Assembly (NCBI GenBank): GCA_964444505.1
Contig: CAYUHF010000004.1
Coordinates: 28,583-92,582 of the forward strand
Direction of reading: 5' to 3'
Source: an uncultured Methanosarcinales archaeon
Lineage (GTDB): Archaea > Nanobdellota > Nanobdellia > Woesearchaeales > JAGVZT01
Length of the DNA: 64,000 nucleotides
Shown: positions 3,901-51,050 of the stretch, in pieces
Layout of the letters: every line of letters starts with the position of its first letter
Position numbering within the stretch: position 1 is the stretch's first letter
Notes under the pieces: generated by a model
What the model saw: only the letters and a program-made list of their open reading frames with translations
Databases searched by the model: none
Told to the model about the DNA's origin: nothing
Position numbers and translations under genes: made by a program

Positions 3901-6900
3901 CCAATTGTCCATATCCATTTGCCCCCCAGCATAAAACAGATCCATTCTCAAGCAAACCACAGGTATGACCTTGTCCACATGCAACATCAATAAAACGGCC
4001 GTTGAAATCAACATATCTGGGGCTTGTGACAGGATCTGGTGAGTCAGACCCAATCCCTGTTTGGCCGTAGGCATTATAACCCCAGCACATCAGGGACCTG
4101 TTTTCAAGTATTCCGCAGGTATAATACTGCCCCACACACATTGACTGTATTTTATCCAGGAAAGTAACATTTGTGTTGTCACTTTCAGCATCTGTTACTG
4201 TAACATTCAAGGTGACATTGTAGTCTATTCCTCTGGCACCTGTGGGTGGATAATTAAGTGTATAAGTGGGATTATAGTTTTTTACTTCATATATAAAGTT
4301 CATTGTAGCTGTATCTGTGCCGTCTGTTACATTAGCCTGAACAGCATGTGTTCCTCTGTCAGAAATTGAAGGATTGTCAGTAATCTGTCCTGACTGGTCA
4401 ATATTGACAATCGAGTCATTGACATCCCAAGTCAGGTCATCATTATCTGCATCAGTGACGTTCAATTGAAGACTCATTGACTCATTATGGAAAAGGGCAT
4501 ACTCTGATATTGTTTCGTCCCAAGCAGGGGCACTATTCTGGATTGTTATTTCAGCAGATTTCCAGTCTGAGTAACTATTACCATCAAAACTCCTGACACT
4601 ACAGTTCCACACATCATCTTTTGATGTATCAGAAGAACTAAGTGTTGAGATAACAGCATTAGATCCATTACTCAGTCCTGTATTCTCTCCGCTATCATGC
4701 TCAGCACAGCTTGCTGTGCAGTTATACCATTTGTATTCAACTGAGAGGGTATTGTTTTCAGTATCAGTTGGTGTTGCATTGCATTTGATGTTGTCATCTG
4801 TGTAAGCTGTTGAAGGTGAGAATGTAGGTGTTGTTATGGTGGGTGCCTCATTCACATCAAATTCGCCACTTCCATATGTTTCAAGCTTTACATAATCTGT
4901 GTAAAGGGAGTTGTGTTCTTCTCTATATTTTTTATCTGGGTGTTTGATGTAGTATCCTTCAGCAGCAAATTCTAGTTTTGTGTAGTTTTCTGGTGCTCCA
5001 AACTCAAGATAATGCTCGTCACCTCTGTTCATAACAAGATAAATATTATCTGATTCCTGCACCATGCTGATGTTTGCATTGGTTATGGATGAGAGTTCCA
5101 CTATTTCTGAGCCATCAACTAATAAATAGATTCTGTCAATGTAGATAGTTTCTTCCAGCTCTCCAGTTATTTTTAGTTTAATCTTGTCTTCTTCAATTTG
5201 TGTTTGGGATATATCTGTAAAGTCAAGATATTCTCTACTTGATGATGTTGCTCCTCCAATGAAATCTGAAAGGAATTCATAACCATTATTATTGTAAGTG
5301 TAAATGTACGGTGAGGATCCTGATCTTACACACCTGACGGGCAAATCTACATTTTTTGACCTATAATAATGTTCAACAGACCCAGAACCAAACCTTACTA
5401 ACCAAGCATATGTTGAACTGTATTCCGATGCTGTACGGTAGGTACTAGATGCGGAGTCATCCCATTCAGGTTCACAGGTATTCTGACCTCCATCACCACC
5501 ATCCCATCCACATGCGTCCACTCCAAGCTGATAGGCCTGACAAGAATCTGGTAAGTCGTCATCATCATCGCAGTAAGGAAGATACCAGTCTTCAAACCCA
5601 CCATGTGACGACTGGCAGCACATATTGCAAGCCCAGTAAGAAACATCTGAACAGTCTCCCGGGCAGTCACCAGCATAGGTTCCATATTTGCCCCAGTCAG
5701 AATCACCTATTGTTTCAGACCACATATCACCGGTTGTTCCACAGTAAACAAAATCATTGCTTAAATTTGTGCTTGTGTTATAACAGTCACTATCAGCACA
5801 ATCAATATATCCATCTCCATCATTGTCTTCTCCGTCTGCACAGCCGTCTGCATAGTTTGTATTGTTCTCATCAGGCATATAAACATACTTTTCTGTTGTT
5901 ACCTTGAAAGCCACTTTTCCATTGGTGTTAACATATGCTTCAGGCGTTGAGGCTTCATAATGGTTAAGTGTCTGGTCAGAAAGTGATGTGAAATCAAGTA
6001 TGTCAAATTGAGTCCAGCTGCTGTCATTGTAATCCCATGCATACAGTGTGGTGTTGTATCCTGACTCATTTTCTCCATATCCTTCCCATGTAATATTAAG
6101 CATGCTTGGTTCTTTTGATGATATGTTGAAGACAAATATCTGGGTATCATATTCCCCTTTGGCATCGGCAAATTCAGTCACCCATCTTGAATTATCAGAC
6201 TCATTGATATTGCCGTAATCTGTTGAAGTGGCTTCGTTGTCATAATCAGTAGGACTTGATGCTGTACCATTTTTCTCAAACGCATTCTTGTTTGTGAGGT
6301 CAGAAAAGTCATAATCAATTATTTTGTCACATGTTCCATCTTCATCACATATCTGGGCATACCATTCAAGTGTACCATCTCCTGACTGGGATGTGTATTC
6401 TGCTTGTGTTGGTGAGGTTGAGTCAGTGGAAGAATATGCAATACATCCTGCCTGCTGGTTATAGTTACAGTTTGTGAAGTCAGTGCTGTCATCTATCAAC
6501 AGCCTTACATTCTTCCCACCGGTAGGATGAGACCAATAAGAAGTGAACATAACCTTTTCTCCCACACTTATTGTTGAGGCATTATCAGTTACATTAATCA
6601 TGGTCAGTACTTCAGGATCATATGCATAATCCGTAACACTGTTTTCGTGACTCTTAAACTCAAACAACAAAGTAGCATAACCTGCCTTATGCATATAGTT
6701 AGAAAGATAACCCGTATTGTCACAAGAATAATCCTCAACTAAAAGCTTTTCAATCTCCAATGAAATAGCAGATTCAAGTTCATTGTATTCAAACATGTTT
6801 CCTTGGAAATCAACCAACTTCAACTCATCCTTAAGTGACTCTTCGCCACACTTGATATCCAAAAACTCCATCTCGTCAAAGGTATCTGGATCATCAGTCA

Positions 6901-8230
6901 AAAACTCAGTCCAGCCGGCATTGGGAGAGGTAATGGTGAGATTGGCAATACCAGTTGTGTTAAAGGCAACTGTCCAAGTCTCACCATCCCTCAGATATGT
7001 ATAGGGGTTGAGTATTGTAATTGATATTTCATAAATCTGGTTTGAAAGATGAGGAACTGTCCACTCCAACATATCTATTAGATTGTTATTGTTGGAGTCA
7101 ATATATTGTACATTTTCAACTTTCTCTTTCCCACTGTCTTTTATCCAATAAACAGTTATTGCTTCTCTTGGAGACTCTTCAATCTCTGTTGAGGCCAGTA
7201 TGTTTTTATAATGTATATCAGAACTGATTATCACTTGTTTTTTGTATTTACTGATTTCCTTTTCTGTCTTTTCTGGTCCAGGTGTCTGGTAACTTATTTC
7301 AACCTCTTTTGTTGTGTTTAATTCAAGTTTCATCTCTTTTGGTTTGCCTGCCTTTAATCTGGAAAACTCTTCAACAGAAAGTTTTCTGTCACCAATATCA
7401 ACTTTAACATCATCACCGGTTTGAATATTATATGCACTTCCAGGGAGTGTGACTGTTTTGACATCCTTGACTCTCTTTAACCAAGTGACAGGCTCCCCGA
7501 CTTTTACTTCTGTGTGATTGAATTCTTCATAGGTAATGTTTTCAGTTGCATTGGGACTTGATACATTAGTGGTTATGTTCTGGGTGGCATTCAGCTCAGT
7601 TGTCAGATTCTCAGTCAAATTCAAAGCAATATTCTCTTCCTCAAATTGCCGGTAAGTGTAGGTTATTGAACTTAGATTCAAAGTGGCGTTTTCAACTATA
7701 ATCCTTAGTGTAGTGTTCGATGGATAATTCTCCAGTAGACATGTCTCTTCACATTCATTGCTGAAGCTTACTAACTGTCGAGATATATTCTCTTTTGTGT
7801 TTGAAATAGATTCATTTGCTGATTGATTGATTACTTGTTCTGTTGTATTTGTCTGATTAACATCTGGATTTGTAAGGTTTAACTCAGTCTGATCCGTGAC
7901 ATTCTTCGCGGTTTCATTAGTGCCAACCAAATTATCAGAAATTCGGTTATTCCCACTTGCATCTGAGCTATAAACTAAAAGCTCATCAAGATAGATTTGA
8001 ACCCTCTCTCCAGAATAACTTCCACTAACAGCAAGCGAAGTCAGATTGCCCTCCAGAGAAAGATTCAACTCAGAGGATTGATTGAAAACCTGATTGATCT
8101 CAAGAGTGGTCTGATTAGTTTCACCAACAGCCATACCCGTAATCTGAGGTCTGATGAAAACAAAAACACCTAGAAGCAGAGCTACAATTAGCACAACTTC
8201 TACAACTTCCCTTGTGTGTTTAGTTTTCAT
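980..8230 (-). CDS. Giant (2416 aa) cell-surface protein. It has an N-terminal signal anchor, dense N-glycosylation sequons, about seven RCC1-like repeats (CWG.N..GQ.G.G), a Cys/Asp/Ser-rich block and two internally duplicated ~100-aa modules.
   Basis: Single uninterrupted ORF. The hydrophobic N-terminus reads VVEVVLIVALLLGVFVF. Repeats of the form CGILENGSAMCWGWN..QTGIG recur seven times. EITTPTFSP.TAYTDD…NCSVRSFDG occurs twice. Confidence 0.8.
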   Translation of the reverse strand: MKTKHTREVVEVVLIVALLLGVFVFIRPQITGMAVGETNQTTLEINQVFNQSSELNLSLEGNLTSLAVSGSYSGERVQIYLDELLVYSSDASGNNRISDNLVGTNETAKNVTDQTELNLTNPDVNQTNTTEQVINQSANESISNTKENISRQLVSFSNECEETCLLENYPSNTTLRIIVENATLNLSSITYTYRQFEEENIALNLTENLTTELNATQNITTNVSSPNATENITYEEFNHTEVKVGEPVTWLKRVKDVKTVTLPGSAYNIQTGDDVKVDIGDRKLSVEEFSRLKAGKPKEMKLELNTTKEVEISYQTPGPEKTEKEISKYKKQVIISSDIHYKNILASTEIEESPREAITVYWIKDSGKEKVENVQYIDSNNNNLIDMLEWTVPHLSNQIYEISITILNPYTYLRDGETWTVAFNTTGIANLTITSPNAGWTEFLTDDPDTFDEMEFLDIKCGEESLKDELKLVDFQGNMFEYNELESAISLEIEKLLVEDYSCDNTGYLSNYMHKAGYATLLFEFKSHENSVTDYAYDPEVLTMINVTDNASTISVGEKVMFTSYWSHPTGGKNVRLLIDDSTDFTNCNYNQQAGCIAYSSTDSTSPTQAEYTSQSGDGTLEWYAQICDEDGTCDKIIDYDFSDLTNKNAFEKNGTASSPTDYDNEATSTDYGNINESDNSRWVTEFADAKGEYDTQIFVFNISSKEPSMLNITWEGYGENESGYNTTLYAWDYNDSSWTQFDILDFTSLSDQTLNHYEASTPEAYVNTNGKVAFKVTTEKYVYMPDENNTNYADGCADGEDNDGDGYIDCADSDCYNTSTNLSNDFVYCGTTGDMWSETIGDSDWGKYGTYAGDCPGDCSDVSYWACNMCCQSSHGGFEDWYLPYCDDDDDLPDSCQAYQLGVDACGWDGGDGGQNTCEPEWDDSASSTYRTASEYSSTYAWLVRFGSGSVEHYYRSKNVDLPVRCVRSGSSPYIYTYNNNGYEFLSDFIGGATSSSREYLDFTDISQTQIEEDKIKLKITGELEETIYIDRIYLLVDGSEIVELSSITNANISMVQESDNIYLVMNRGDEHYLEFGAPENYTKLEFAAEGYYIKHPDKKYREEHNSLYTDYVKLETYGSGEFDVNEAPTITTPTFSPSTAYTDDNIKCNATPTDTENNTLSVEYKWYNCTASCAEHDSGENTGLSNGSNAVISTLSSSDTSKDDVWNCSVRSFDGNSYSDWKSAEITIQNSAPAWDETISEYALFHNESMSLQLNVTDADNDDLTWDVNDSIVNIDQSGQITDNPSISDRGTHAVQANVTDGTDTATMNFIYEVKNYNPTYTLNYPPTGARGIDYNVTLNVTVTDAESDNTNVTFLDKIQSMCVGQYYTCGILENRSLMCWGYNAYGQTGIGSDSPDPVTSPRYVDFNGRFIDVACGQGHTCGLLENGSVLCWGANGYGQLGLGYTSSEEHDPQYVDGPSNFTTISAGEDTTCGILINGSGMCWGWNTYSQTGIGNDNSPVNSPSYVAGERKFVEIAPSSYRHTMGLLENGSAMCWGQNYDSQCGAGSSSPGEVQSPIYVNTTNQFISVSAGKEYSCGLMANGSAMCWGSNFRGKTGIGSLSPSEIEFPTYVNTTHRFKYLRAHGDTTCGVLLNGSAVCWGGNPQGNTGIGSTTPLEVVNVSYVNTTNRFIQIFPGDDTPTTCGILVNGSAMCWGWNSDAQTGIGSTTPSPLLTPSYVVATGQFVNFSVKGNNTDVISGSEATTELKNLPERTTYLWSVLIQDDYDTTNSLVWKFRTDSTCKEMPSSCFTGSECCTGLCVNGNCATTCDMESGIGCSTDSTDYDSISAGTCYDSSAYSSGGTYGCDYISEIRMDCGTGNPCHIDEDDSFESCSSTSGDGCDSNAGGNFTQDGTCTASGCDTSGHVCYDDVSFQSDCSTCYSSGSDWDACDSSVLGGDYDPDGICVSGGVCDNSGEACYDGSAYQSSCTSCSEGNACDSSIESGSYSANGVCYDASGLLCCNSDEDYEGSSTNDCCYDGSILSDGSSSSSILCDSGQFYDCNSQVSIDGNVDTESTTGSQVGSLCCGEDNSWSSENCNTNPEITTPTFSPTTAYTDDDISCNATPTDGENSTLTVEWFWYNGTEEMLGGNTTGLTDNVNAVISTLGSGNTTKDETWNCTVRTFDGELYSDWSSAEITLQNSQPTVNLLTPTNGNTSIRTRRPEFTWSGSDGDSDSLTYNIWIDDNSDFSSPAIDGVETQDQNYTPTSDLELDTQYFWRVQAYDGTDYVNSSDWNFTTESYIEVKFINESISFGSMNLSETKNTTSDDPYPFVLQNMGNVFVNVTFGVTGAFWDSALAPLDTSFLQFKADERTEANSFDYAGSQTTWMNLSTENKTLVKDLNYSDSNDEVVVDILIRVPEDEPAGSKSTTFVIEIP

Positions 8231-9066: not shown

Positions 9067-10929
9067 ATGAAAGTTGAAATTGATGGAAAAACAAAGGATG
9101 TGGATAAGGGAATTAAACTGTCAGAAATCGCACCAAAAGGTGCTGTAGTTGCCAAACTCAACGGAAAACTGGTTGATTTAAGCACAGAAGTAACAGATGA
9201 CTCCACAATCACTTTCTATGATGCTCACACAGAGGAAGGTCTGGATATTTTAAGACACAGTGCAGCTCATGTCCTTGCTGATGCTGTTAAGAAATTATTT
9301 CCTGATGCACTACCGACAATTGGTCCTGTTGTTGATGAAGGTTTTTATTATGACTTCTATGCAGAGCCCTTTAGTCCAGAGGACTTAGAAAAGATCGAAG
9401 AAGAGATGAAAAAGATAGTCAAGAGAGACGAGAAGTTTAAAAGAATTGAGCTTGAGTTGGATGAGGCAAAAGAGCAGTTCAAGGATAACTCATACAAGAT
9501 TGAGATGGTTGAAGAGTTTGGAGAGAATCTTTCTGCATACAAACATGGTGATTTTATTGACCTTTGCAGAGGTCCTCATATTCCAAGCACGGGGTTCATA
9601 AAAGGTGTAAAACTAACTAAGGTTGCAGGAGCTTACTGGAGAGGAGATGCTAAAAACGAGCAGCTCCAGAGAATTTACGGTATTGCTTTCCCAACAAAAA
9701 AACAGCTTGAGGAATATGTAAAGCAGAGAGAAGAGGCAGAGAAAAGAGACCACAGAAAACTGGGCAAGAGATTAGAGCTTTTCAGCATGCATGAGGAAGG
9801 TCCTGGTTTTATCTTCTGGCTTCCTAATGGTCTTAAGGTTAAAAAAGCTCTTCTTGACTTCTGGAGAAAAAAACACAAAGAAGCTGACTATCTATTAATT
9901 GAAACCCCATTTATTCTGCACAGAAAGCTCTGGGAACAGTCAGGACACTGGGAAAACTACAAAGAAAAGATGTACACTTTGAAGATTGATGACCAGGACT
10001 TTGCAATAAAACCAATGAACTGCCCTGGCGGGATGCTTGTCTACAATGAAAAAATCCATTCATACAGGGAGTTTCCGTTGAGGGTTGGTGAGCTGGGGTT
10101 TGTGCACAGGCACGAGCAGTCAGGTGAGATAAGCGGACTTTTGAGAGTACGTGGATTTTTGCAGGATGACGCTCATATCTACATGACTCCTGAACAGCTT
10201 GAAGATGAAATAATCAATGTTGTCCAGCTGTGCCTTGAATTGTATGAACCGTTTGGTTTTGAATACGAGGTTGAGCTTTCAACAATGCCTGAAAAACATA
10301 TAGGTACAATCAAACAATGGGAGCACTCAACTAATGCTCTTAAAAATGCTCTTGACAGAATGGAAATAGATTACAGGACAAGTGCTGGCGAGGGTGCATT
10401 TTATGGTCCAAAGATTGACTTCCACTTGAAAGATGCTATTGGAAGAACCTGGCAGTGCGGTACAATCCAAGTTGATATGGCTTTACCCGAAAAGTTTGAT
10501 ATGACATATGAAGGAGAAGACGGTGAGAGGCATAGACCCATCACAATCCACAGGGCTCTTTATGGTAGTATCGAGAGGTTTTTGGGAATATTGATTGAGC
10601 ATTATGCTGGAAAATTCCCCATGTGGCTGAGTCCTGAACAGGTCAGGATAATGAGTGTTGCAGACAGGTTTAATCCGTATGCACAAAAGATTGCTGACAA
10701 ATACGAAGAGGCAGGAATCAAGGTAACAACTGATTTCAGATCTGAGTCTGTCGGTAAAAAGATTAGGGATGCGCAGGTTGACTATGTGAATTACATGATT
10801 ATTATTGGCGGAAGAGAAGAAGAAGCAGGAAAGGTTAATGTTCGGACAAGAGAGGAAGAAGTTTTGGGCATGATGGATCCTGATGAGTTCCTGGAAAAGA
10901 TGCTCACAGAGATAAGCGAGAAGAAATAG
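9067..10929 (+). CDS. thrS: Threonyl-tRNA synthetase
   Basis: N-terminal TGS domain and an editing domain with HSAAHVLADAV. Class II core motifs are present (FAIKPMNCPGGMLVY, RVRGFLQDDAHIY). Length is 620 aa. Confidence 0.95.
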   Translation: MKVEIDGKTKDVDKGIKLSEIAPKGAVVAKLNGKLVDLSTEVTDDSTITFYDAHTEEGLDILRHSAAHVLADAVKKLFPDALPTIGPVVDEGFYYDFYAEPFSPEDLEKIEEEMKKIVKRDEKFKRIELELDEAKEQFKDNSYKIEMVEEFGENLSAYKHGDFIDLCRGPHIPSTGFIKGVKLTKVAGAYWRGDAKNEQLQRIYGIAFPTKKQLEEYVKQREEAEKRDHRKLGKRLELFSMHEEGPGFIFWLPNGLKVKKALLDFWRKKHKEADYLLIETPFILHRKLWEQSGHWENYKEKMYTLKIDDQDFAIKPMNCPGGMLVYNEKIHSYREFPLRVGELGFVHRHEQSGEISGLLRVRGFLQDDAHIYMTPEQLEDEIINVVQLCLELYEPFGFEYEVELSTMPEKHIGTIKQWEHSTNALKNALDRMEIDYRTSAGEGAFYGPKIDFHLKDAIGRTWQCGTIQVDMALPEKFDMTYEGEDGERHRPITIHRALYGSIERFLGILIEHYAGKFPMWLSPEQVRIMSVADRFNPYAQKIADKYEEAGIKVTTDFRSESVGKKIRDAQVDYVNYMIIIGGREEEAGKVNVRTREEEVLGMMDPDEFLEKMLTEISEKK

Positions 10930-13658: not shown

Positions 13659-15431
13659 ATGAAAAGAGTGTGGTTCTTGATTTTGCTTCTTTGTATTCCG
13701 GGTGTTTTTGGAATCTGTTCCTGTACCTGCAACAGGCTGCGGGATCTTAGGTACCCTGGTCCAAAAGAGTATGATATTGATAAGGCGTTTATTGATATGG
13801 AGATTGGTGAGGACGGGAAAATTTATGTGAATGAGACTATTACTTTTGATTTTTATCTGGGTAAATTTTCTTATGCATACAGGGATTTTGAAGTTCCTGT
13901 AAGCGAGGTTTCTGTTACAGAAAACGGCCAGAAAATCTGCTATGATGTACTGGGAGATAGTGTTAAGTGGTATTTTGATGAGAAGAACAACAACAAAAGA
14001 ACTTTTACTATCCACTACACAACCACCAAGGTTGTGACTGTTTATGATGATTATTCTGATTTTTACATGAAGATCTGGGGTGATGAATGGGCTGTTCCTG
14101 TAGAGGATATTGAAGGTGAGATTACTCTTCCTGCAGGAATAGAACCAGAAGAAGTGTATACATGGGGCCACCCTGACCTTTCTGGAAAGATCGGGATGAG
14201 TGACGAGAGAACAGTTGTCTACCAGGCATTTGGTGTGCCAGAAAACCAATGGGTTGAGTTAAGGGTTGCTTATCCTTCTGAGCTTATGTCGTCTTTAGAA
14301 AACGCAGAAAGAATAAAAGGAGATGGGCTTCAAAAAATAATTAGAGAGGAGAGAAGACAGGAAAATCAGAAAGTGTTTATTTTTGCAGGTCTTATAATAC
14401 CTCCTGTGATAATGATTGTTGTTTTTGTTTACCTGTTTTTTAAGTTTGGAAGAGAACCAAAGATTGAATATGATGCAGAATATGAAAGAGAAATACCCTA
14501 TGAATATAGTCCTTCTATTGTGAGTGCGCTTTTGAATCAGCATAGTAAAAAACCAGGCTATTCTGCTTTTGGTGCTGTTGTCCTGGATCTTGTGAGAAGA
14601 AAATACCTTGAGCTCAAAAAAGTTAAAGTAAAAACACTTCTCGGGAAAAGGGATGATTTCCAGATAAGAATGAAAAAGAGTATTTCTGAATACCTTGGTG
14701 ACAGCTCACTTACTTTTTCAGAAAAAAAGGTCTTAAGAATTCTTCATACATTGATGGACAACCGCAAGATTACTTTTTCAGAACTCAAGAGAAAGGCAAA
14801 AACAAAGACAACATTCAGCATGATGATGGATGACTGGAGGTCCAGAGTAAAAATGGAGATTGAGCATATGGATCTTCTTGGAGAGAACAAGCATTACCAA
14901 TATTTTTTTATTGCCTCTGTTGGGCTTTTTGTTGTTGGAAGTATTTTGCTGTTTTTTATTCCACTGGATTTCTTATTTATTGGTGTAGGGTTTGGGTTTA
15001 TTATTGCAGGTGTTGTTTCAATGCTGTTGAATGGAATACTAAATGAAGCTCTTCCAAGAAGAACACCCAAGGGAGCACTTCATTACAAGAAGTGGATGGC
15101 ATTAAAAAGATTTCTTAAGGATTTCAGCGAGCTTAAGAGTGTTTCAACTGATGCAGTTCAATTGTGGGAGCAGTTTCTTGTTTACGCTATTCCACTGGGA
15201 GTTGCCAAAAAGGTTGAGAAAAACATGGAGAGAGTTTTCAAGATATCAGAGAAAAACCCTGTTGTTTTGTATGGAGTCACTTACACAAGCCTGAGCTCTT
15301 TTGACAATTTCACTTCATCAATAAACTCTTTCAGCTCAACAGTGTCACACTCTGCTTCGACTTCAGGATCAGGAGGTTTTAGTGGTGGCGGCGGTGGAGG
15401 AGCTGGTGGTGGAGGGGGCGGGGCAGGCTAA
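13659..15431 (+). CDS. DUF2207-like membrane protein with a signal peptide, an extracellular domain, transmembrane helices and a C-terminal Gly-rich tail
   Basis: Signal sequence MKRVWFLILLLCIPGVFG, internal transmembrane helices, and a C-terminal SGSGGFSGGGGGGAGGGGGGAG tail typical of DUF2207. Confidence 0.5.
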   Translation: MKRVWFLILLLCIPGVFGICSCTCNRLRDLRYPGPKEYDIDKAFIDMEIGEDGKIYVNETITFDFYLGKFSYAYRDFEVPVSEVSVTENGQKICYDVLGDSVKWYFDEKNNNKRTFTIHYTTTKVVTVYDDYSDFYMKIWGDEWAVPVEDIEGEITLPAGIEPEEVYTWGHPDLSGKIGMSDERTVVYQAFGVPENQWVELRVAYPSELMSSLENAERIKGDGLQKIIREERRQENQKVFIFAGLIIPPVIMIVVFVYLFFKFGREPKIEYDAEYEREIPYEYSPSIVSALLNQHSKKPGYSAFGAVVLDLVRRKYLELKKVKVKTLLGKRDDFQIRMKKSISEYLGDSSLTFSEKKVLRILHTLMDNRKITFSELKRKAKTKTTFSMMMDDWRSRVKMEIEHMDLLGENKHYQYFFIASVGLFVVGSILLFFIPLDFLFIGVGFGFIIAGVVSMLLNGILNEALPRRTPKGALHYKKWMALKRFLKDFSELKSVSTDAVQLWEQFLVYAIPLGVAKKVEKNMERVFKISEKNPVVLYGVTYTSLSSFDNFTSSINSFSSTVSHSASTSGSGGFSGGGGGGAGGGGGGAG

Positions 15432-15835
15432 TGAAAAGACTACAGACAGCAGAGCACATCCTGATAAGAACAGTTGAAGCTTATAATGCAGAGCACCATA
15501 AAACTTTTTTCAAACCGAATTTTGCAAAAATTGATGTTTTTTGTTTAAAGGATTTAAGGCCTTTTTTGAAGGGAATTGAAACAAAGGTCAACCAGATTAT
15601 TCAAAAAAACCTGGATGTAAAAACATACACTCTTAAAAGAGATAAGGCCGATGTTTCGCTGGTTAAAATACCTAAGACAGTGAAAAGTATCAGGATAGTT
15701 GAGATAGATGATTTTGACAAAAGAGCATGCAAGGGTTCACATGTTGATAATACAAGAGAAATAGGCACTTTTGTGCTTGATGGTATACAAGAGATTGGAG
15801 ATAAAAAATACAGATTCACTTTTCACGTAGAATGA
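15431..15835 (+). CDS. Protein with a tRNA-synthetase second-additional-domain (AlaX-S/ThrRS editing-like) fold
   Basis: CKGSHV (the C-x-x-x-H zinc motif) and upstream His residues. Length is about 134 aa. Confidence 0.4.
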   Translation: MKRLQTAEHILIRTVEAYNAEHHKTFFKPNFAKIDVFCLKDLRPFLKGIETKVNQIIQKNLDVKTYTLKRDKADVSLVKIPKTVKSIRIVEIDDFDKRACKGSHVDNTREIGTFVLDGIQEIGDKKYRFTFHVE

Positions 15836-16566
15836 AAGTTACTGTTGTTGCTTCGGGGTCAAATGGAAACTGCTGTATGGTTGAGAATAATGGAACTTCT
15901 CTTTTGATAGATGCCGGGAAAAGCTGCAGTGAGATTGAAAAAAGACTCGAAAGACAAGGAAAAAACCTTGACAATCTTAAGGCAATAGTTTTAACCCATG
16001 CCCACACTGACCACACATCTGGTGCAGGGCCTATTTCAAGAAAGTATAACGTGCCTGTCTTTTTGAAAAAAACTATGTATGAAAAGGCAAGGAAAAAAAT
16101 TGGAAAAACACAATACAAGTTTTTCAGTGGGAAGTTCAGGATCAATGGAACTGAGATAACTCCTGTAAAGACTTCACATAGTATTGCTTCTTATGGTTAT
16201 GTTATTGGAAAGTTTGGTTTGTTTACTGATACAGGCATTCCCACGTCTGATATGGAGAAGATAATGCCAAAGCTTGAGGGTGTTCTTCTGGAGTCTAATC
16301 ATGATGTTGATATGCTGATAAACGGGCCTTATCCTTATTATTTAAAACAGCTTATTCTTTCAAATGAGGGCCATCTGAACAATATTGATGCCTGCAATTT
16401 TGTTGAAAATTTTGGAGAAAACATTTCATATGTTCTGCTTGGGCATCTTTCCGGGACAAACAACACTCCGAAAGCTGCAAAACAGACTTTTGAGAGCTTG
16501 GTAAAAAGAAAGGTTGATTTTCATGTGTGCTCCAGAGAAAAACTTAGCGGTACCTGGAAAATATGA
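15832..16566 (+). CDS. Metallo-beta-lactamase-fold hydrolase
   Basis: VLTHAHTDHTSG (HxHxDH motif) and a downstream His. Confidence 0.7.
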   Translation: MKVTVVASGSNGNCCMVENNGTSLLIDAGKSCSEIEKRLERQGKNLDNLKAIVLTHAHTDHTSGAGPISRKYNVPVFLKKTMYEKARKKIGKTQYKFFSGKFRINGTEITPVKTSHSIASYGYVIGKFGLFTDTGIPTSDMEKIMPKLEGVLLESNHDVDMLINGPYPYYLKQLILSNEGHLNNIDACNFVENFGENISYVLLGHLSGTNNTPKAAKQTFESLVKRKVDFHVCSREKLSGTWKI

Positions 16567-16714
16567 TGGGCCCGCCCAGATTTGAACTGGGGATATTCGC
16601 CGTGTAAGGGCGACGTCATTTGTGGCATCTTTTGACCATAGGCGGCCAAGCAAAAGCGCATGCCGTCCCTGTTTTGGTCCATATTAAAAGATGGAGCCAC
16701 TAGACCACGGGCCC
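16567..16714 (-). tRNA. tRNA-Val (anticodon UAC) carrying a ~75-nt intron inside the D-loop
   Basis: Minus strand reads GGGCCCG-UG-GUCU-AGUGG[intron]…UGAC-G-UCGCC-CUUACAC-GGCGA-AUAUC-CCCAG-UUCAAAU-CUGGG-CGGGCCC-A. The acceptor, anticodon and T arms are canonical. CCA is not encoded. Confidence 0.6.
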
Positions 16715-16742
16715 GAATAATAAAACAAATATTGTTTACTAT

Positions 16743-17699
16743 TTAAAGCTTTTTCTTGAGCTCTTCAATTAGTTCCACTGGTGTCGGATCCACTCCGTAC
16801 TTTAAGGCCAGAAAATATGCTGACCAGTAGGCCATGTATATTGCAGAAAAAATCTTTACCAGCTGAGAGCTTCCCTTGATTACTACTTCTGTGCAAGAAG
16901 CCTCTTCTGAGATGATATCTTTTGTAATCTTGAATCTTTTCTGGATCCTTCTGTGGCAGTCATCTTCTCTTACCATGATTACCTTGAAGTCACCGTTAGG
17001 CCTTGTCCAGCCCAGAAGCTCATTATGGTTTAATTCAGGAAAATAGTTGTAGAATGCATTTGTCTTTGCATTCTCGTTTATTGCAATCTTCCACATCTCT
17101 GCTACCATGTATAGTGTGTCTGACCCATAAATAACAGGCAGTCTTCCCTCCATCGAGGTTGCAAGCTCCTCCCCCTTCATCTTGAAGTGAGGGTTCTGCA
17201 GCTTTTTGACAACTTCTTCAACATCAATCTTGACAAAGCCGGAGTTCTCAAGTACTCTTAGCATTGCAAAGGTCATGTAACCGACTGCTAGTCTTGGCTG
17301 TATGCCTTCAGGTATTTCAATTATTGTTTTGTTGTCTTGTTTTGCATTGTCCTTGAGCTTACCGCCGGAGGTTACTGCAATTATCTGTGCTTTGTCTTTT
17401 GCTTCTTTGTATGCTGACAAAGTTTCCTCTGTGTTTCCTGAATAGGATGTGACAAACACAAGTGTTTTTTTGTCTACAAATTTGGGTATTCCATAGCTTT
17501 TATGAACATACACTGGGACATCTGCAACATCCCGGAAAAATGTTTTTATAATATCAGACGGCAGACCTGAGCCACCCATACCGCAAAACAGAATTTTATC
17601 AACTCCTTTAACCTCAATCTTTTCCCCTAATTCATAACCTTTCTTTATTTGTGATGGAAAATCCTCCAGAACTGCAAGCATATTTTGTTTGTCTATCAT
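16743..17699 (-). CDS. Bifunctional phosphoglucose/phosphomannose isomerase (archaeal SIS-domain PGI/PMI)
   Basis: SIS domain features GMGGSG and TSYSGNTEET; length and composition match archaeal PGI/PMI. Confidence 0.65.
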   Translation of the reverse strand: MIDKQNMLAVLEDFPSQIKKGYELGEKIEVKGVDKILFCGMGGSGLPSDIIKTFFRDVADVPVYVHKSYGIPKFVDKKTLVFVTSYSGNTEETLSAYKEAKDKAQIIAVTSGGKLKDNAKQDNKTIIEIPEGIQPRLAVGYMTFAMLRVLENSGFVKIDVEEVVKKLQNPHFKMKGEELATSMEGRLPVIYGSDTLYMVAEMWKIAINENAKTNAFYNYFPELNHNELLGWTRPNGDFKVIMVREDDCHRRIQKRFKITKDIISEEASCTEVVIKGSSQLVKIFSAIYMAYWSAYFLALKYGVDPTPVELIEELKKKL

Positions 17700-17920: not shown

Positions 17921-19036
17921 CTAAATAGCATCCTTTATCTTATCTAAAAAATTCTTGTCAGGACTCTCACCTAAAGTATCTGCGTATTCTCTTAAGAGTT
18001 CTTTTTGTTTTTTTGTTAGTTTCTCTGGTGTCTGGACTTTTACTTTAACCATCTCGTCTCCCCTGCCCCTTCCGTTAAGGTGAGGTATTCCTTTGCCTCT
18101 CATCCTCAGAACTGTGTGTGACTGTGTTTTGGGAGGGACTTTGAGCTCTGCTTTTCCTTCTAGTGTTGGAACAGTTATCTCTGACCCAAACACTGCCTGT
18201 GTAAAACTTATTGGGATTTCCACATAGATGTCATCTCCTGCTCTTTCAAATACTTTGTGGGGTTTTATGCGGATCACAACATAGAGATGTCCTGAAGGGC
18301 CTCCATTCTGACCCGCGTGTCCTTCTCCCTGGAGTCTCAGACTTGAACCATCCTCTATCCCCTCTGGAACTTTTATTTCCAGAGTGCTTTCGGTTCTAAT
18401 CTTTCCATTGCCCTGACACTGGGGGCATTTTTCCTTGATTATCTTGCCATCGCCGCCGCATTTTCTGCATCTTGTTCTTGTTGAAACCACACCAAATGGA
18501 GTTCTTCTTGTTATTGATTCCATCCCGCGGCCGTTGCACTGATCACAGGTTTTGAGCGCGCTTTGTGAAGCTGCCCCTGTCCCACCACACTTATCACAGG
18601 TTTCTACTCTCGGGACTTTGATTTTCTTTTTTGTACCAAATGCAGCTTCTTCCAAGGTTATATCCAGTTCATACATCAGGTCAGAGCCTCTTCTTGACCT
18701 GCTCCTGCCAAAAGAGAAGTTTCTCCCGAAAAGCTCATCAAAAATACTGTCAAAATCAAATCTGCCGAAACCAAAATTAGAAAAGTCAAACCTGTTGAAA
18801 TCAAAACCCTGGCTGAATGATGAGTCTGCAGTCCCGAACCTGTCATACTTAGCACGTTTTTCATCATCTGCAAGCACAGATGCTGCCTCGTTTATCTCTT
18901 TGAACTTTTCATGCGCATCCTGGTCTTTGTTCAAATCCGGATGGTATTTTTTAGCAAGTTTTTTGTATGCTTTTTTGATTTCCTGCTTTGATGCATCTTT
19001 TGATACTCCAAGTATTTCATAGTAGTCTTTGGTCAT
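17921..19036 (-). CDS. dnaJ: Chaperone DnaJ
   Basis: J domain with the HPD motif ([10 protein letters not shown]), a G/F-rich region and four CxxCxGxG zinc-finger repeats. Confidence 0.9.
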
Positions 19037-19644
19037 TGTAGTTCATCTCCCAATATCTGTGCAAGTTCCTGTTTGAGCTGTTTTGCATCTTTGAAATGGA
19101 TTGTTGCAAAACCTTTTTTATCTGCTACTTTTATGTTTTTTTCAAGGTCATCAATAAAAACGCACTCACGGGGCTCAAGCTTAAGTCTGGTGAGCAGTAT
19201 GTCAAAAAGTTCTCCATCTGCCTTGAGAACACCGTGTTCAGCAGAGAATATGATAAGGTCAAAGTACTTTGTGAGTTCAAGCCTTTCTACCTGATGCTCA
19301 AAGATACCTTTTATGTGGTCTGACAAGATTGCCAGCTTGTATTTCTGCAACTGTTTTACAATGGAAATTACATCTGGATTGAGTTGAAGATTGTCTCTCA
19401 TTTCTCTTGATATTTTTTCATTTACTTTTTCGTCTATACCCTGGACATTCCTTACAAATTTGTTGAACTCATTTAATGTTATATTGCCTCTCATAAGCTC
19501 TGGCAGATGATTGCTTCCATATACTTTTTCCAGTGCTTCTTCTGGACTGATTTTAAGATGTTGCTTGTATTTTCTAAGTATTTTCAATGTATTTCCTGGT
19601 ATTGTGAGTACATCTCCAAAGTCAAAAATTACTGCTTTTATCAT
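19033..19644 (-). CDS. HAD-superfamily hydrolase
   Basis: N-terminal FDFGDV (DxD motif I) and a HAD-like C-terminus. Confidence 0.55.
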
Positions 19645-20162
19645 CTTATATCTTCAGGGTTAATATCTATTCTTTTAAAAATTTCCTGTTCTAGTTGTTT
19701 TGTCATTTCAACTATTTCCTGGTTGAAGTCAAGATTTGGATATCTTTCCCTTGCATCCCTGAACCTTTCATCTACTGATACTATCTGGTCATGTAGCACT
19801 CTTCTGTCTGCATAGTGAACAATTTTTTCTTCCCATGTGATCAGATCTTTTATAAAGTTGCACCTGTGTTTTTTTGCTGTTTTTCCAAGTTCCAAATAAC
19901 CCATATCAGACAGTATTTTTTCTGTGACTTCTCCATGGTTTGGTTTTCGAAGTGTCTTAATTTTGTCAAGGTCATGCAGCAGTGATGCCCTGTCAACAAG
20001 TTCAACATCAATATCTAAGCCTGACTTCTTTAGTTTATTTGCCAGGAGGACAGAAATCTTGTTTACCTGTAGAGAGTGTCTTAAAACATTTTCTGGAACG
20101 TGTTCTTTGAGAAGCTTTATTGCCTGTTTACGGGTTGGCAGGGACAAGTTTACCCACCTCAT
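19641..20162 (-). CDS. HD-domain phosphohydrolase
   Basis: H…HD motif (RHSLQV…LLHDLDK). Confidence 0.55.
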   Translation of the reverse strand: MRWVNLSLPTRKQAIKLLKEHVPENVLRHSLQVNKISVLLANKLKKSGLDIDVELVDRASLLHDLDKIKTLRKPNHGEVTEKILSDMGYLELGKTAKKHRCNFIKDLITWEEKIVHYADRRVLHDQIVSVDERFRDARERYPNLDFNQEIVEMTKQLEQEIFKRIDINPEDIR

Positions 20163-20847
20163 TCAGCTGGTAATCGGATGCATCTATATTGTCAATTACT
20201 TCAATAATTTCCAGAGGTGATCGAACTTTCCAGTTTGGCTCTGGATCCCATATGAAATCACCTTCAAAACCAGCTCCTACTGCAAATACCTGCAATCCTG
20301 TGAGGTTTGCATTATAGGCAGTTCTAAAATCATTTCTATGGTCACCAACAAAGACAATTGGGCCCTCTACAGCAAGTTCATCAGCGCATCTTATGAGTCC
20401 CTGGGGGTGTGGCTTGTGATAAGCACAGTTATCAGAGCCAACAATAACAGGAAAATACTCAGAAATACCATGGTGTTTAAGTACCGTCCTTATTGTTCCG
20501 GATGTATTGAGTGAATGCACAGCCATGGGGAGCTCTAGAGTTCTGACAAGCTCAGGAATACCTTCATAAAGAGTAACAGGCATACTAAGTTCCTGGTGAT
20601 AATGGTCCCATAGCCCATCTTGAGCCCGTAAGATTTCTTCTTTACTCAGTCCAAGATCTTCATATATCTCAGTGAAGTGATCTACTCTTGAAACAAGGTC
20701 AAGATAATTCTGCTTATCTTCGAGCTGCTCTTTTGGAGGGTGTCCAAGATGTCTACAGATTGCTCTTGTGACATGTCTGTTTGATTCAAATGTTGCTCCT
20801 AATGTGCCGTCATAATCAAAAACAACAGCACAGACATTACTCGTCAT
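20128..20847 (-). CDS. HAD-superfamily hydrolase
   Basis: VVFDYDGTL motif I and a downstream GD motif. Confidence 0.55.
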
Positions 20848-22708
20848 CTTTCACTTCATAGTCAGCATCAACTACTTTCTCATCTTTGGTTTTTTCATTG
20901 GTTTTCTTCTCTGTCTTCTGACCTGCAGCTTGCTGAGCCGCCTGCTGTGCTGCCTGGGCCTGCTGATAAACTTCTGTACCAATTCCCTGGAGAACTTTGT
21001 TTAGCTCATCCATTTTTGAATCAAGTGCATCAAGGTCTTTGTCTTCTTTTTCAAGCATTTCTTTTAGCTCATCCAGATGCTTTTTCACTTCTTCCAGCTT
21101 GTCATCTGATACTTTGCCCTTGAACTCTTCCAGAAGTTTTTCAGTCGAGTAGACCATTGAGTCTGCTTTGTTTACTGTCTCTATTCTCTTTTTTCTTTCT
21201 TTGTCTTCTTCAGCATGTGCTTCTGCTTCTTTTTTCATCTTCTCAATTTCAGCTTCACTCAACTTCTGGGTTGCTGTGATCTTTATGGACTGTTCTTTTC
21301 CTGTTCCAAGGTCTTTTGCAGAAACATTCACAATTCCATCAGCATCAATGTCAAAAGTGACCTCGATCTGTGGTACTCCTCTTGGTGCTGGCGGTATTCC
21401 CACAAGGTCAAAGTTGCCAAGCAGTTTGTTGTCTGCTGCCATTGGTCTTTCACCCTGGAAAACCCTGATGCTTACTGCTCTCTGGTTGTCTGTTGCAGTG
21501 CTGAATACCTTGCTCTTTTCAACTGGAATAGTTGTGTTCCTGTCAATTAACTTTGTAAAAACTCCTCCTAATGTCTCAATTCCAAGACTTAAAGGTGTTA
21601 CATCAAGAAGCAGTACATCTTTTACCTCTCCTGACAAAACACCGCCCTGGATAGCTGCGCCTCTTGCAACACACTCCATAGGATCAATTCCTCTTTCTAT
21701 CTTTTTTCCGACATAGTCCTCTACAAACTTCTGGACTATTGGCATTCTTGTTGGTCCGCCCACGAGAATTACTTTGTTGATATCATCTGGAGTTAGGTTT
21801 GCATCTTTGATTGCCTGCTCCATTGGACCTTTACATTTCTGCACAATCGGCCTTACAAGTTCTTCAAGTTTTGACCTTTTTATTTTCATTACAAGGTGCT
21901 TTGGCCCGTCATCACCACCTGTGATGTATGGGAGGTTTACTTCAGTCTCCATTACATTTGATAGCTCAATTTTTGCAATCTCTGCAGCTTCTTTTACACG
22001 CTGCTTTGCTTTGTTGTCTTTTGATAGATCAACTCCCTCTTTTTTCTTGAACTCAGCAACAATATAGTCAGTAAGGACTTTGTCCATATCAGTTCCACCG
22101 AGCTGGGTGTCACCGCTTGTTGACCTCACTTCAAATACACCTTCGCCAAACTCCATGATTGTTACATCAAGAGTTCCTCCACCAAGGTCAAACACTAGAA
22201 TTGTGTGCTCTTTGTCTGATTTGTCAAGTCCGTATGCAAGTGATGCTGCTGTTGGCTCATTTATTATTCTTACAACATCAAGTCCTGCGATTGCACCTGC
22301 ATCTTTTGTTGCCTGCCTCTGGTTGTCATCAAAATAAGCAGGTACTGTTATTACTGCTTTTTCAACATCTTCTCCCAGAAACTTCTCTGCATCTCTTTTG
22401 ATTTTTTGCAGAATAAATGCAGAAATCTGCTGGGGTGTGTACTCTTTTCCATTTATCTTGTACTTATGGTTTGTACCCATCTTTCTCTTGGCTGCAGTTA
22501 CTGTTCTTTCAGGGTTTGTTACTGCCTGCCTTTTTGCAGGCTCACCAACTAAAAGCTGTCCGTCTTCTGTAAATGCAACTACGCTGGGAAAGGCCTTACC
22601 GTAAAGTGTAACTCCTTCTTCACTTGGAATTACTCTTGGCTTTCCTGCCTCAAGATATGCTGCCGCTGAATTACTTGTACCTAAATCAATTCCGATTATC
22701 TTTGACAT
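20837..22708 (-). CDS. dnaK: Chaperone DnaK (Hsp70)
   Basis: [10 protein letters not shown] and DLGGGTLD motifs; 623 aa. Confidence 0.95.
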
Positions 22709-23312
22709 CTAAATCACCTATTGCTTGTTTTAAAGATTCTAATTCTTTTATCACAGGACCGTGTCCTGGTATTATCACATCAGCAACATCAAGTATTTTT
22801 TTGATGCTCTGATCAAGATCATCATTGAAATAATCTGCAAACTCTTCTCTGTTCAATATGTGGTGAGCGTTTATCACATCTCCCGAGACAACTATTGTTT
22901 GTTTTCCCGGAACAACAACTGAGATGTGGCTGTGAAAGTGGCCTGGTGTTGACATTATCTTCACTCCAGGAATTTGAATGTCTTCTGGTTTTTCATAGAT
23001 CTCAACTCCTTCAGGAGTCCATACAACCTGGCCGTTGACTATTGTCTTGTCTTTGAAAAGATAATTGTTAAAACAGTGGTCTATGTGAAAGTGAGTGTTA
23101 ATCACATAATCAATGTCCTCTGCTTTAAGTCCTCTTTTTGAGAGTTCCTGGATGAGTTTTGTTTCATAGCCCCTGTAACCTGTGTCAACAAGGATATTTT
23201 TCTCGCCCCGAATTAGGGTCACACTTGAACAGATTGGTTTTACTTCATGGATTAGTCTGCCTTCAGCATCCTTATCTCCATGCACTCCCTCTATAAGTAC
23301 TTCAACTTTCAT
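22686..23312 (-). CDS. Metallo-beta-lactamase-fold protein
   Basis: NTHFHIDHC motif and a GHGPV segment. Confidence 0.55.
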
Positions 23313-23614
23313 TCTTCCAGTGCTTTTTTCCTAAGCTGATCAACACGCTCGTCAGTAAGTATTGGTTTTGGTTTTTTGACATGTTTTCTAAACGAAATCA
23401 CATCAACTGATTCCAGAAACTTAACCAGTTTTCTGAAATTGAACTCATCATAGTCTTTTAGTGAACCCAATGCTTCATAGAGACTCTGGTCATAACACAT
23501 AAGCTCTATGTCATCGGGTTTGCATTTAATAAGAGTGTCAATTCTGTCACTTGTTCCCAAAAAATACTTCAATACTGCGCTTGCTCTAATCAACATGCTC
23601 TGTTTGTTTTCCAT
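23309..23614 (-). CDS. Hypothetical protein
   Basis: ORF with operon-type overlaps inside the heat-shock gene block. Confidence 0.35.
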   Translation of the reverse strand: MENKQSMLIRASAVLKYFLGTSDRIDTLIKCKPDDIELMCYDQSLYEALGSLKDYDEFNFRKLVKFLESVDVISFRKHVKKPKPILTDERVDQLRKKALEE

Positions 23615-24131
23615 TTTCCCTCCGTAAATCGTGATAGTCTAAATACTTCTCGAGTAATTCTTTTGATAGTAATTCGTGAAGGTCTGCCCCAGGTATGGGG
23701 TCTTTGAATTTGATATAATTAGCATACTGTCTTACTGACTCTGGATCATTCTTGTCAACAAGATAGTTTACATAAAACCACTGCAGCAGCTCTTCTCCAT
23801 ATGGTCTGCATGTGGCAACTTTGCAATGGAGTGGTTTTACTGGATGGATACTGCAGCCTTCTTCTTTAAGGAATACACACCTGCCGTAAGGTTTATCCTT
23901 TTTTATTGTCCGTGGTCTTAAAAACTCTCTATGAAATATTCGTTGTTTGTCAAGATAGTTTTCTTTTACTTGTTTTGGTGTCAGGTTCAAAAACTCTGCA
24001 ATATTCAATAAATCATCTTCTACCAAAAATCCTGTGGTGAACTTGCAGCAGTGATTTGACCTGTCACAGGTGCTCCCGAGTTCAATCACTTTTTTCTTTG
24101 GTGTTTTTGTTGTTATTATCATTTCCCTCAC
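23586..24131 (-). CDS. YkgJ/UPF0153-family cysteine-cluster (putative Zn/Fe-chelating) protein
   Basis: CDRSNHCC…GRCVFL…GCSIHPVKPLHCKVATC Cys pattern. Confidence 0.5.
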   Translation of the reverse strand: MREMIITTKTPKKKVIELGSTCDRSNHCCKFTTGFLVEDDLLNIAEFLNLTPKQVKENYLDKQRIFHREFLRPRTIKKDKPYGRCVFLKEEGCSIHPVKPLHCKVATCRPYGEELLQWFYVNYLVDKNDPESVRQYANYIKFKDPIPGADLHELLSKELLEKYLDYHDLRRENGKQTEHVD

Positions 24132-24537
24132 TTACAATTACCTTTGGATGCCTAATAATTATGCTGTCCAGCTTGTAGCCTTTTGATACTTCTTCAACTA
24201 TTTCTCCTTTGGGCTTGTCACTGCAGTTTCTGCATATACAGTCATGTATGTTAGGATCAAATTTGCCTTCTGCCTGTATTGGCTCAAGTCCAAGGTTTTT
24301 CAGGCTTGAGATAAGCTGGTTGTAGAGGGGTTTTACTGCCTCTTCCTGTTTTGCGTTCTCAAAACTGTCAAGAACAGGAAGGATCTTTCTTAAGACAAGT
24401 ACCTTCCCCATCCTGACATAGTTTTCCTCTGATTTTTCTGTGCGTTTCTTGTAATTCTCAAAATTTGCCTGCACTCTTTTCAAGAGGTCTGTTAGTTCTT
24501 TGATCTCCTCTTCTTTTTTCTTTAGCTCTTCTGACAA
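24082..24537 (-). CDS. grpE: Nucleotide exchange factor GrpE (short form)
   Basis: Coiled-coil N-terminus (ANFENYKKR), a C-terminal beta domain, and a position upstream of dnaK. Confidence 0.65.
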   Translation of the reverse strand: MSEELKKKEEEIKELTDLLKRVQANFENYKKRTEKSEENYVRMGKVLVLRKILPVLDSFENAKQEEAVKPLYNQLISSLKNLGLEPIQAEGKFDPNIHDCICRNCSDKPKGEIVEEVSKGYKLDSIIIRHPKVIVSEGNDNNNKNTKEKSD

Positions 24538-50900: not shown

Positions 50901-51050
50901 ATGGTGAAAATTGTTGATAACAACGGGCAGTACAAGGTAACTCTACCTAAGACTCTTGTAATAGATAAGGGATGGGTAGGAGGTACTGTGATCAGGTTTG
51001 TTGAGGACTTGGAAGGGAGGGTTTTCTTGAAGGTGGTCAAGAATGAATAG
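50901..51050 (+). CDS. AbrB/MazE/SpoVT-type swapped-hairpin DNA-binding protein. It lies immediately upstream of surface-protein gene 1 and overlaps it.
   Basis: MVKIVDNNGQYKVTLPKTLVIDKGWVGGTVIRFVEDLEGRVFLKVV. This is the internal Met of track ORF 50829..51050. Confidence 0.45.
   Translation: MVKIVDNNGQYKVTLPKTLVIDKGWVGGTVIRFVEDLEGRVFLKVVKNE

Follow-up and report, generated by a model that had tools for sequence, protein, structure and literature searches.

A disrupted tRNA-Val(UAC) gene with a single 75-nt D-loop intron and an archaeal bulge–helix–bulge splicing motif

Can a tRNA gene that standard tRNA finders reject, and whose D-loop is interrupted by 75 nucleotides, still encode a usable tRNA? 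The question is raised by positions 16714..16567 (minus strand) of the window, the 64,000-nt stretch of DNA that was analysed. The locus is a genuine tRNA-Val(UAC) gene with one 75-nt D-loop intron that carries the archaeal splicing signal. By sequence reading the gene is complete, being 148 nt long when the discriminator base A73 is counted, and CCA is absent from its encoded 3′ end. Taken together with the comparative evidence below, it is very probably functional and supplies tRNA-Val(UAC) to a Woesearchaeota-like DPANN archaeon, being interrupted by a single bulge–helix–bulge (BHB) intron of 75 nt between positions 20a and 21. Read 5′ to 3′ on the minus strand from 16714 to 16567, with the 75-nt insert in brackets, the gene is:

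GGGCCCG-UG-GUCU-AGUGGCU[CCAUCUUUUAAUAUGGACCAAAACAGGGACGGCAUGCGCUUUUGCUUGGCCGCCUAUGGUCAAAAGAUGCCACAA]A-UGAC-G-UCGCC-CUUACAC-GGCGA-AUAUC-CCCAG-UUCAAAU-CUGGG-CGGGCCC-A

Its parts are as follows.

16695..16714, minus strand: 5′ exon, tRNA positions 1-20a (acceptor strand GGGCCCG, U8 G9, D-stem strand GUCU, D-loop AGUGGCU)
16620..16694, minus strand: intron, 75 nt, at D-loop position 20a/21, a long imperfect hairpin
16567..16619, minus strand: 3′ exon, tRNA positions 21-73 (A21, UGAC, G26, anticodon arm UCGCC-CUUACAC-GGCGA, variable loop AUAUC, T arm CCCAG-UUCAAAU-CUGGG, acceptor strand CGGGCCC, A73)
16604..16606, minus strand: anticodon UAC, by sequence reading

In gene coordinates the 5′ exon spans 1-20, the intron 21-95 and the 3′ exon 96-148. 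An earlier, sequence-only reading had proposed a tRNA-Val(UAC) whose D-loop contains an intron of about 75 nt, and the 75-nt insert at 20a/21, with exons that together give an ARAGORN-valid tRNA-Val, bears this out. The canonical acceptor stem, anticodon arm, variable loop and T arm, and the split D-stem halves, can all be seen in the minus strand as that reading described. Its estimate of about 110 nt between position 7 and the anticodon arm was too high; the distance is 94 nt, and 94 - 19 = 75. All cloverleaf stems of the spliced tRNA are perfectly paired, with the sole exception of a U13-U22 pair in the D-stem that is found family-wide.

ARAGORN detected 0 tRNAs in the whole 64-kb window, likewise 0 with its intron options, and a tRNA-Gly that it called in the window at a lowered score threshold was rejected as spurious. 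Rfam likewise reported no tRNA in the 64-kb window at gathering score. At a loose threshold, Rfam family RF00005 matched only the 3′ part of the gene (anticodon and T arms, 16575-16630), at 20 bits against a cut-off of 29 bits. When the insert was deleted in silico, ARAGORN called tRNA-Val(TAC) in 142/210 junction combinations, and splicing at the junctions predicted from the BHB motif gave a 73-nt tRNA-Val(tac) with a full canonical cloverleaf. Recognition by ARAGORN, one of the finders that the sequence-only reading had offered as a check, fails for the unspliced gene and succeeds once the insert is removed at the predicted junctions. The spliced 73-nt sequence has the features by which a tRNA-Val(UAC) was judged: a 7-bp acceptor stem, D, anticodon and T arms, U8, A14, G18 G19, A21, U33, a T-loop of the form UUCRANY and a discriminator base. 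A window-wide Rfam search at E <= 10, combined with a custom T-arm and acceptor scan, revealed no further disrupted tRNAs or tRNA halves, and tRNA-Val(UAC) at 16567..16714 is the sole tRNA gene detected in the 64 kb.

Rejection by standard finders could be taken to mean that the locus is a dead tRNA pseudogene, in which a 75-nt insertion, left by a mobile element or a replication slip, is never removed. Against this, both exons are intact, the cloverleaf stems are paired (except for the family-wide U13-U22) and A73 is present. Furthermore, the insert has no terminal repeats, no target-site duplication and no second copy in the window. When the intron was compared by blastn with the window and with every locus collected here, its only full-length match was itself (16694-16620), and no homologous intron turned up. 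A pseudogene is very improbable on these grounds and on others that emerge from the structure of the insert and from related genes.

The archaeal BHB motif, the substrate of the splicing endonuclease, is defined as a central helix of 4 bp with a 3-nt bulge at either end, one on each strand (PMC7714728). The D-loop insert forms a 4-bp helix with a 5′ bulge CUC and a 3′ bulge AAA, so that, against the pseudogene reading, it sits exactly in a BHB. The elements of the motif are listed below.

16697..16700, minus strand: central helix, 5′ strand GUGG (tRNA G15 U16 G18 G19), pairing with CCAC at 16622-16625
16622..16625, minus strand: central helix, 3′ strand CCAC, the last paired nucleotides of the intron; YAC of this strand was imposed by the search pattern used to collect related genes
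16694..16696, minus strand: 5′ bulge C-U-C, with the predicted 5′ splice site after the second nucleotide (between U20a and C)
16619..16621, minus strand: 3′ bulge A-A-A, with the predicted 3′ splice site after the second nucleotide (between A and A21)
16686..16693, minus strand: inner (intron) helix, 5′ strand CAUCUUUU, pairing with AAAAGAUG over 8 bp
16626..16633, minus strand: inner (intron) helix, 3′ strand AAAAGAUG, pairing with CAUCUUUU

In gene coordinates, G15 U16 G17 G18 pair with C90 C91 A92 C93, C19 U20 C21 form the 5′ bulge, A94 A95 A96 form the 3′ bulge, and the 8-bp inner helix joins C22-U29 with A82-G89. The minimum free energy (MFE) of the precursor fold is about -60.5 to -60.7 kcal/mol (z = -3.84 against dinucleotide shuffles; 0/200 shuffles as stable). 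The hairpin noted in the sequence-only reading, in which CAUCUUUU pairs with AAAAGAUG, is thus upheld, as is its suggestion that a BHB would be found at the exon–intron junctions: the 4-bp central helix and 3-nt bulges are present, and the motif is backed by covariation across 20 related genes.

The conformer with the 4-bp helix and the 5′ bulge at 19-21 has a free energy of -59.9 kcal/mol, at most 0.8 above the MFE of -60.7. The unconstrained MFE slides the 5′ bulge by one C, giving a 5-bp helix (G15-C19) and a bulge of U20-C22. Since either C19 or C22 can pair with G89, the 5′ bulge of the window gene can slide, and the junction read from this gene alone is ambiguous by one register. The MFE register was rejected: it would give a 9-nt D-loop unlike that of an intron-less ortholog (L004), and other family members, L012 among them, can form only the 4-bp helix with the 19-21 bulge. 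Cleavage after the second nucleotide of both bulges leaves a mature D-loop AGUGGCUA and a valid tRNA, and the same rule recovers the textbook 37/38 junction in L001 and L002. Applied to the window gene, this rule places the intron between Sprinzl positions 20a and 21, at 16694..16620. The predicted mature D-loop, AGUGGCUA, matches letter for letter the uninterrupted one of L004, a syntenic ortholog, which independently confirms the predicted splice junction. The 5′ exon/intron junction is therefore defined by BHB geometry together with the identity of the resulting D-loop to that of L004.

The 3′ side of the motif is less regular. The 3′ bulge is a clean 3 nt only if A14-U22 and U13.G23 pair, in a fold of -54.9 kcal/mol, about 5 kcal/mol less stable than the D-stem register. 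The lowest-energy folds keep the D-stem register, with pairs G10-C25, U11-A24 and C12-G23, which puts the 3′ splice site within a 2x4 internal loop (U13 A14 / A A A U22). Covariation does not separate these 3′-bulge registers because the nucleotides involved are invariant across the family. In the strict hBHBh′ arrangement, flanking helices h and h′, each of at least 2 bp, close both bulges. Here the inner helix has 8 bp and is backed by covariation, and the outer helix would consist only of A14-U22/U13.G23, whose nucleotides are invariant.

From these folds, it is possible, though not the favoured reading, that the intron is real but that its motif is relaxed (BHL or HBh′-like), with the 3′ site in an internal loop and a specialised, broad-specificity endonuclease needed for its removal; describing it as a strict BHB would then be mistaken. 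The internal loop of the lowest-energy folds is in keeping with this, as are 3/20 family members with just 3/4 central-helix pairs. Published work points the same way: a narrow-specificity EndA barely cuts even a strict BHB in the D-loop (PMC3241643), and DPANN alpha4 EndAs carry an extra L3 loop that is correlated with tRNA gene disruption (PMC5829648). However, the 5′ bulge, the 4-bp central helix and their 3-nt spacing are canonical in 17/20 genes, and an outer helix of two pairs, A14-U22/U13.G23, is able to close the bulge on the 3′ side and could be stabilised by the enzyme. The distinction is, moreover, a detail of enzyme specificity that leaves the nature of the feature unchanged. The BHB of tRNA-Val(UAC) is nearly strict rather than strongly relaxed.

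Related genes were collected with a pattern that requires an insert between GGTCTAGTGGY and YACNNATGACNYCGCC; it matched 11 loci among GTDB species genomes and 9 among metagenomes. One of the 11 GTDB loci, L016, was discarded as a false positive within a bacterial coding region. A near-exact pattern of the 3′ exon gave 0 matches in genome contigs, so that no near-identical representative of the species is present there. Besides the window gene, 19 other distinct tRNA-Val genes from archaeal MAGs and metagenomes carry an insert at the identical site, making a family of 20 with the anticodons UAC, CAC and GAC. Their 20a/21 inserts span 18-75 nt (n=20), the window intron being the longest. The GUGG/CYAC central helix is complete (4/4 bp) in 17/20 genes and has 3/4 bp in the other 3/20; the 5′ bulge is 3 nt long in 20/20 and reads YYN (YUN in 19/20), and the 3′ bulge reads ANA. 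Removal of the inserts at 20a/21, 37/38 and 59/60 turns 20/20 genes into a 73-nt ARAGORN-valid tRNA-Val, introns at 37/38 and 59/60 being present as well in many of the 20.

The sequence of the inner helix varies gene by gene across all 20. In an alignment of a mini-substrate made up of the D-stem, the BHB and the first 6 inner-helix pairs (n=20 genes), the paired fraction of cells is 91.9%; shuffled alignments give 73.5 ± 1.8%, and the observed value was reached in 0/500 shuffles. Compensatory, two-sided changes occur at 6/6 of the inner-helix pairs counted, and pairing falls to only 30-55% when the 3′ partner is slid by ±1 to 3 columns. The search pattern imposed the YAC of the central helix, A21 and UGAC. 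The inner helix and its 3-nt offset from the central helix were not imposed and therefore provide independent support for the motif. By blastn, intron sequences are unrelated among the 20 genes except in two near-identical pairs, L001/L002 and L002b/L026. The same site is thus filled in 19 other genes by unrelated sequences whose helix is kept by compensatory changes, which indicates purifying selection on a processing signal and argues against a dead pseudogene.

A stable insert, the longest of the 20 introns, with an intron MFE of -22.5 kcal/mol, could also in principle be a self-splicing group I or group II intron, or host a small RNA such as a C/D-box guide. Some archaeal tRNA introns do encode C/D-box guides, as in Haloferax tRNA-Trp. 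Group I introns, for their part, occur in Woesearchaeota (PMC6125680). Such an element is nevertheless extremely improbable here. At 75 nt, the insert is far below the size of group I and II introns, whose catalytic core comprises a few hundred nucleotides; no Rfam family lies over it even at E <= 10; and it contains neither a C box (RUGAUGA) nor a D box (CUGA). Only the BHB is conserved in the family, intron sequence and length being variable apart from the pairs L001/L002 and L002b/L026.

The titles of the records that carry the 20a/21 insert name Woesearchaeota, Nanoarchaeota, Aenigmatarchaeota and Thermoplasmatota. Two loci, L014 at 4551 (plus strand) and L010 at 4479 (plus strand), have the same D-loop intron site in tRNA-Val(UAC) on contigs titled Thermoplasmatota or Thermoplasmata. 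The tRNA gene of L014 has a thiolase gene as a neighbour, and the best named matches of this thiolase, at 78-91% identity, come from Methanofastidiosia and Bathyarchaeia, although thiolase is too conserved to place the contig. As these thiolase relatives lie outside DPANN, the 20a/21 site likely extends beyond that group, and it is probably not confined to DPANN.

Some related tRNA-Val genes have three introns each (20a/21, 37/38 and 59/60): L015 at 3238 (minus strand); L002 at 5791 (plus strand), which is the same as L003 at 2941 and L008 at 6440; L020 at 16, L022 at 1118 and L023 at 50 (all plus strand); and L026 at 434 (minus strand). After in-silico splicing, all of these yield 73-nt valid tRNAs. 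In the BHB of their 59/60 introns, T-loop nucleotides U54-A57 (UUCA) pair with UGAA, which lies at the intron's 3′ end.

The same-strand upstream neighbour of the window tRNA gene encodes a bifunctional phosphoglucose/phosphomannose isomerase (PGI/PMI; 17699..16743, minus strand). In the contigs of the closest PGI/PMI homologs, tRNA-Val(UAC) likewise lies directly downstream of PGI/PMI. The introns of these tRNA genes compare as follows.

Window locus: D-loop 20a/21, 75 nt; 37/38, none; T arm, none
L001: D-loop 20a/21, 22 nt; 37/38, 12 nt; T arm, none
L002 / L003: D-loop 20a/21, 22 nt; 37/38, 15 nt; T arm, none
L004: D-loop intact, AGUGGCUA; 37/38, none; T arm, about 135 nt

That tRNA-Val genes directly downstream of PGI/PMI carry introns in relatives too is a further point against a dead pseudogene in the window. 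The order PGI/PMI–tRNA-Val(UAC) is kept in the window, L001, L002, L004 and L015, with a different intron complement in each; the complements across these loci are D75, D36+AC45+T43, D22+AC12, D22+AC15 and T arm only. The comparison of these syntenic tRNA-Val orthologs indicates fast intron gain and loss.

In L004 (5009-5210; GCA_018263355.1, a Woesearchaeota MAG), about 135 nt are inserted in the T arm of the tRNA-Val downstream of PGI/PMI. An internal UUCAAA suggests that this insert may comprise two separate introns, at about 53/54 and at 59/60. An ordinary tRNA-Gly(GCC) gene lies about 130 nt downstream of this tRNA-Val. At positions 5135-5239 of L002 (CAYHAM010000012.1), a run of N precedes a second copy of the 3′ portion of tRNA-Val(UAC). 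This looks like a scaffolding or assembly duplication; the Logan assembly of the region (L003) has neither gap nor duplicate. The record title of CAYHAM010000012.1, 'uncultured Methanosarcinales', conflicts with its Woesearchaeota-like PGI/PMI.

The nearest relatives of the window PGI/PMI are 56-66% identical to it, and the named ones come from Woesearchaeota MAGs. On the strength of these homologs, the contig is placed among the Woesearchaeota/Nanobdellota (DPANN), DPANN being one of the two groups, with Thermoproteota, that the sequence-only reading had named for such introns. Genes for TFB, exosome, SBDS and proteasome components in the window confirm an archaeal chromosome. On the other side of the tRNA gene, a gene for an MBL-fold protein (Pfam Lactamase_B; 15832-16566, plus strand) is convergent with it, and its TGA stop codon at 16564-16566 touches A73 at 16567. 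The two genes do abut without a gap, as had been noted, but the MBL-fold gene lies downstream of the tRNA and not upstream. Two candidate expression signals flank the tRNA gene.

16740..16747, minus strand: TTTAAATA, a TATA-like box at -33..-26 (counted from G1) that shares bases with the PGI/PMI stop codon, TAA
16558..16561, minus strand: T-run, 6 nt past the discriminator base, within the 3′ end of the MBL-fold gene that converges on the tRNA

Judged by sequence and position, TTTAAATA is a probable archaeal promoter element, and similar A/T boxes are found about 24-36 nt upstream of most related tRNA-Val genes. Similarly, the T-run at 16558..16561 is a probable transcription stop, a T-run occurring within the first trailer bases of most related tRNA-Val genes too.

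Established archaeal tRNA splicing (PMC7714728, PMC4090602) offers the model by which the exon–intron anatomy, the BHB and the conserved, covarying site may be linked to a mature product; transcription, cleavage, ligation and the type of endonuclease are proposed by analogy with it. Transcription would start from the promoter whose TATA box shares bases with the stop codon of PGI/PMI, upstream. In the precursor, the D-loop GUGG (G15-G19) would pair with CCAC at the 3′ end of the intron, forming a BHB continuous with the 8-bp intron helix. EndA would then cleave after the second nucleotide of each bulge, and an RtcB-type ligase would join the exons and probably circularise the intron. Finally, RNase P, tRNase Z and the CCA-adding enzyme would produce the finished 73-nt tRNA with its D-loop AGUGGCUA. 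Neither EndA nor RtcB was found among the 45 window ORFs scanned with Pfam. Wild-type Archaeoglobus fulgidus EndA hardly cleaves even a strict BHB placed in the D-loop, a substrate that enzymes with an extra loop do cleave (PMC3241643), and in DPANN alpha4 EndAs the L3 loop correlates with more tRNA gene disruption (PMC5829648). By analogy, it is plausible that a broad-specificity endonuclease processes the tRNA-Val(UAC) intron, as the sequence-only reading had suggested.

A D-loop BHB intron such as that of tRNA-Val(UAC) is an already documented kind of feature and implies no new mechanism. Kaneta et al. described a D-loop intron at 20b/21 in the pre-tRNA-Glu(UUC) of Methanopyrus kandleri, whose mature tRNA is seen by RNA-seq (PMC5829648). 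As in that gene, the intron of the window gene lies immediately 5′ of A21 and would be removed via a BHB-type motif formed between D-loop and intron. A further shared point is co-occurrence with a canonical 37/38 intron in one tRNA, which in the present case is seen in relatives of the window gene. The two differ in that the gene described here is for Val and belongs to another phylum. Furthermore, the M. kandleri motif was described as a relaxed HBh′, whereas the 5′ half of the motif in the window gene is strictly canonical.

Hirata et al. observed that the D-loop BHB intron of Aeropyrum pernix pre-tRNA-Thr2(UGU) is spliced both in vivo and in vitro and that EndA alone suffices (PMC3241643). 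This intron shares with that of the window gene a BHB at a non-standard, D-loop position. In contrast to the window gene, its host is a crenarchaeon with a heterotetrameric EndA bearing a Crenarchaea-specific loop, and the tRNA is for Thr rather than Val.

Multi-intron and otherwise disrupted tRNA genes are known in Thermoproteales and DPANN (PMC4033280, PMC4090602), and an epsilon2 EndA is known from ARMAN-2 (PMC3239211). For DPANN, one Woesearchaeota genome among them, published work describes increased disruption of tRNA genes and predicted tRNA sets that are incomplete, and it notes that disrupted genes of this sort often make DPANN genomes seem short of tRNAs (PMC5829648). Considered family-wide, the tRNA-Val genes resemble the disrupted tRNAs of Thermoproteales and DPANN in their non-canonical intron positions, in having up to three introns, in rapid turnover and in being missed by finders. 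Unlike the multi-intron tRNAs of those groups, the window gene has one intron, and the 20a/21 site is common to three Val isoacceptors in MAGs labelled as several phyla. In the literature searched, neither this recurrence of 20a/21 in three Val isoacceptors across MAGs of several phyla nor the differing intron complements of syntenic tRNA-Val orthologs was found described. Recognition of tRNA-Val(UAC) brings the decoding repertoire of a reduced genome closer to completion, and the 20-gene family is a usable dataset for the spread of non-canonical tRNA introns and their co-evolution with the splicing endonuclease.

It is conceivable, but unlikely, that 20a/21 is an old, selectively maintained intron position specific to tRNA-Val, shared by the three isoacceptors, by DPANN lineages and by at least one archaeon outside them (L014), and that it is retained for the way in which the BHB ties up G15-G19 of the precursor. 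If so, this could set the order of a D-loop modification (archaeosine at G15, for example) or of a folding step, or act as a gate for it, and the intron could also shield the tRNA-Val gene from integrating elements; 20a/21 would then be a rare conserved, functional, non-canonical tRNA intron position. Alternatively, the 20a/21 introns may be neutral insertions that recur.

Several other genes of the window may be recorded. A stand-alone, tRNA_SAD-only protein of 134 aa (AlaX/ThrRS editing-like) is encoded at 15431-15835 (plus strand), with a 4-nt overlap with the start of the MBL-fold gene at 15832-16566. A complete ThrRS that includes a tRNA_SAD domain of its own is encoded 4.5 kb away, at 9067-10929 (plus strand). 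Giant surface-type proteins are frequent in DPANN genomes, and the window contains very large ORFs at 980-8230 (minus strand), 51043-55215 (plus strand) and 55790-59500 (plus strand), of 2416, 1390 and 1236 aa. At 17921-24537 (minus strand), dnaJ, dnaK and grpE are interleaved with genes for two HAD hydrolases, an HD-domain protein, a second MBL-fold protein and a CxxCxxCC protein.
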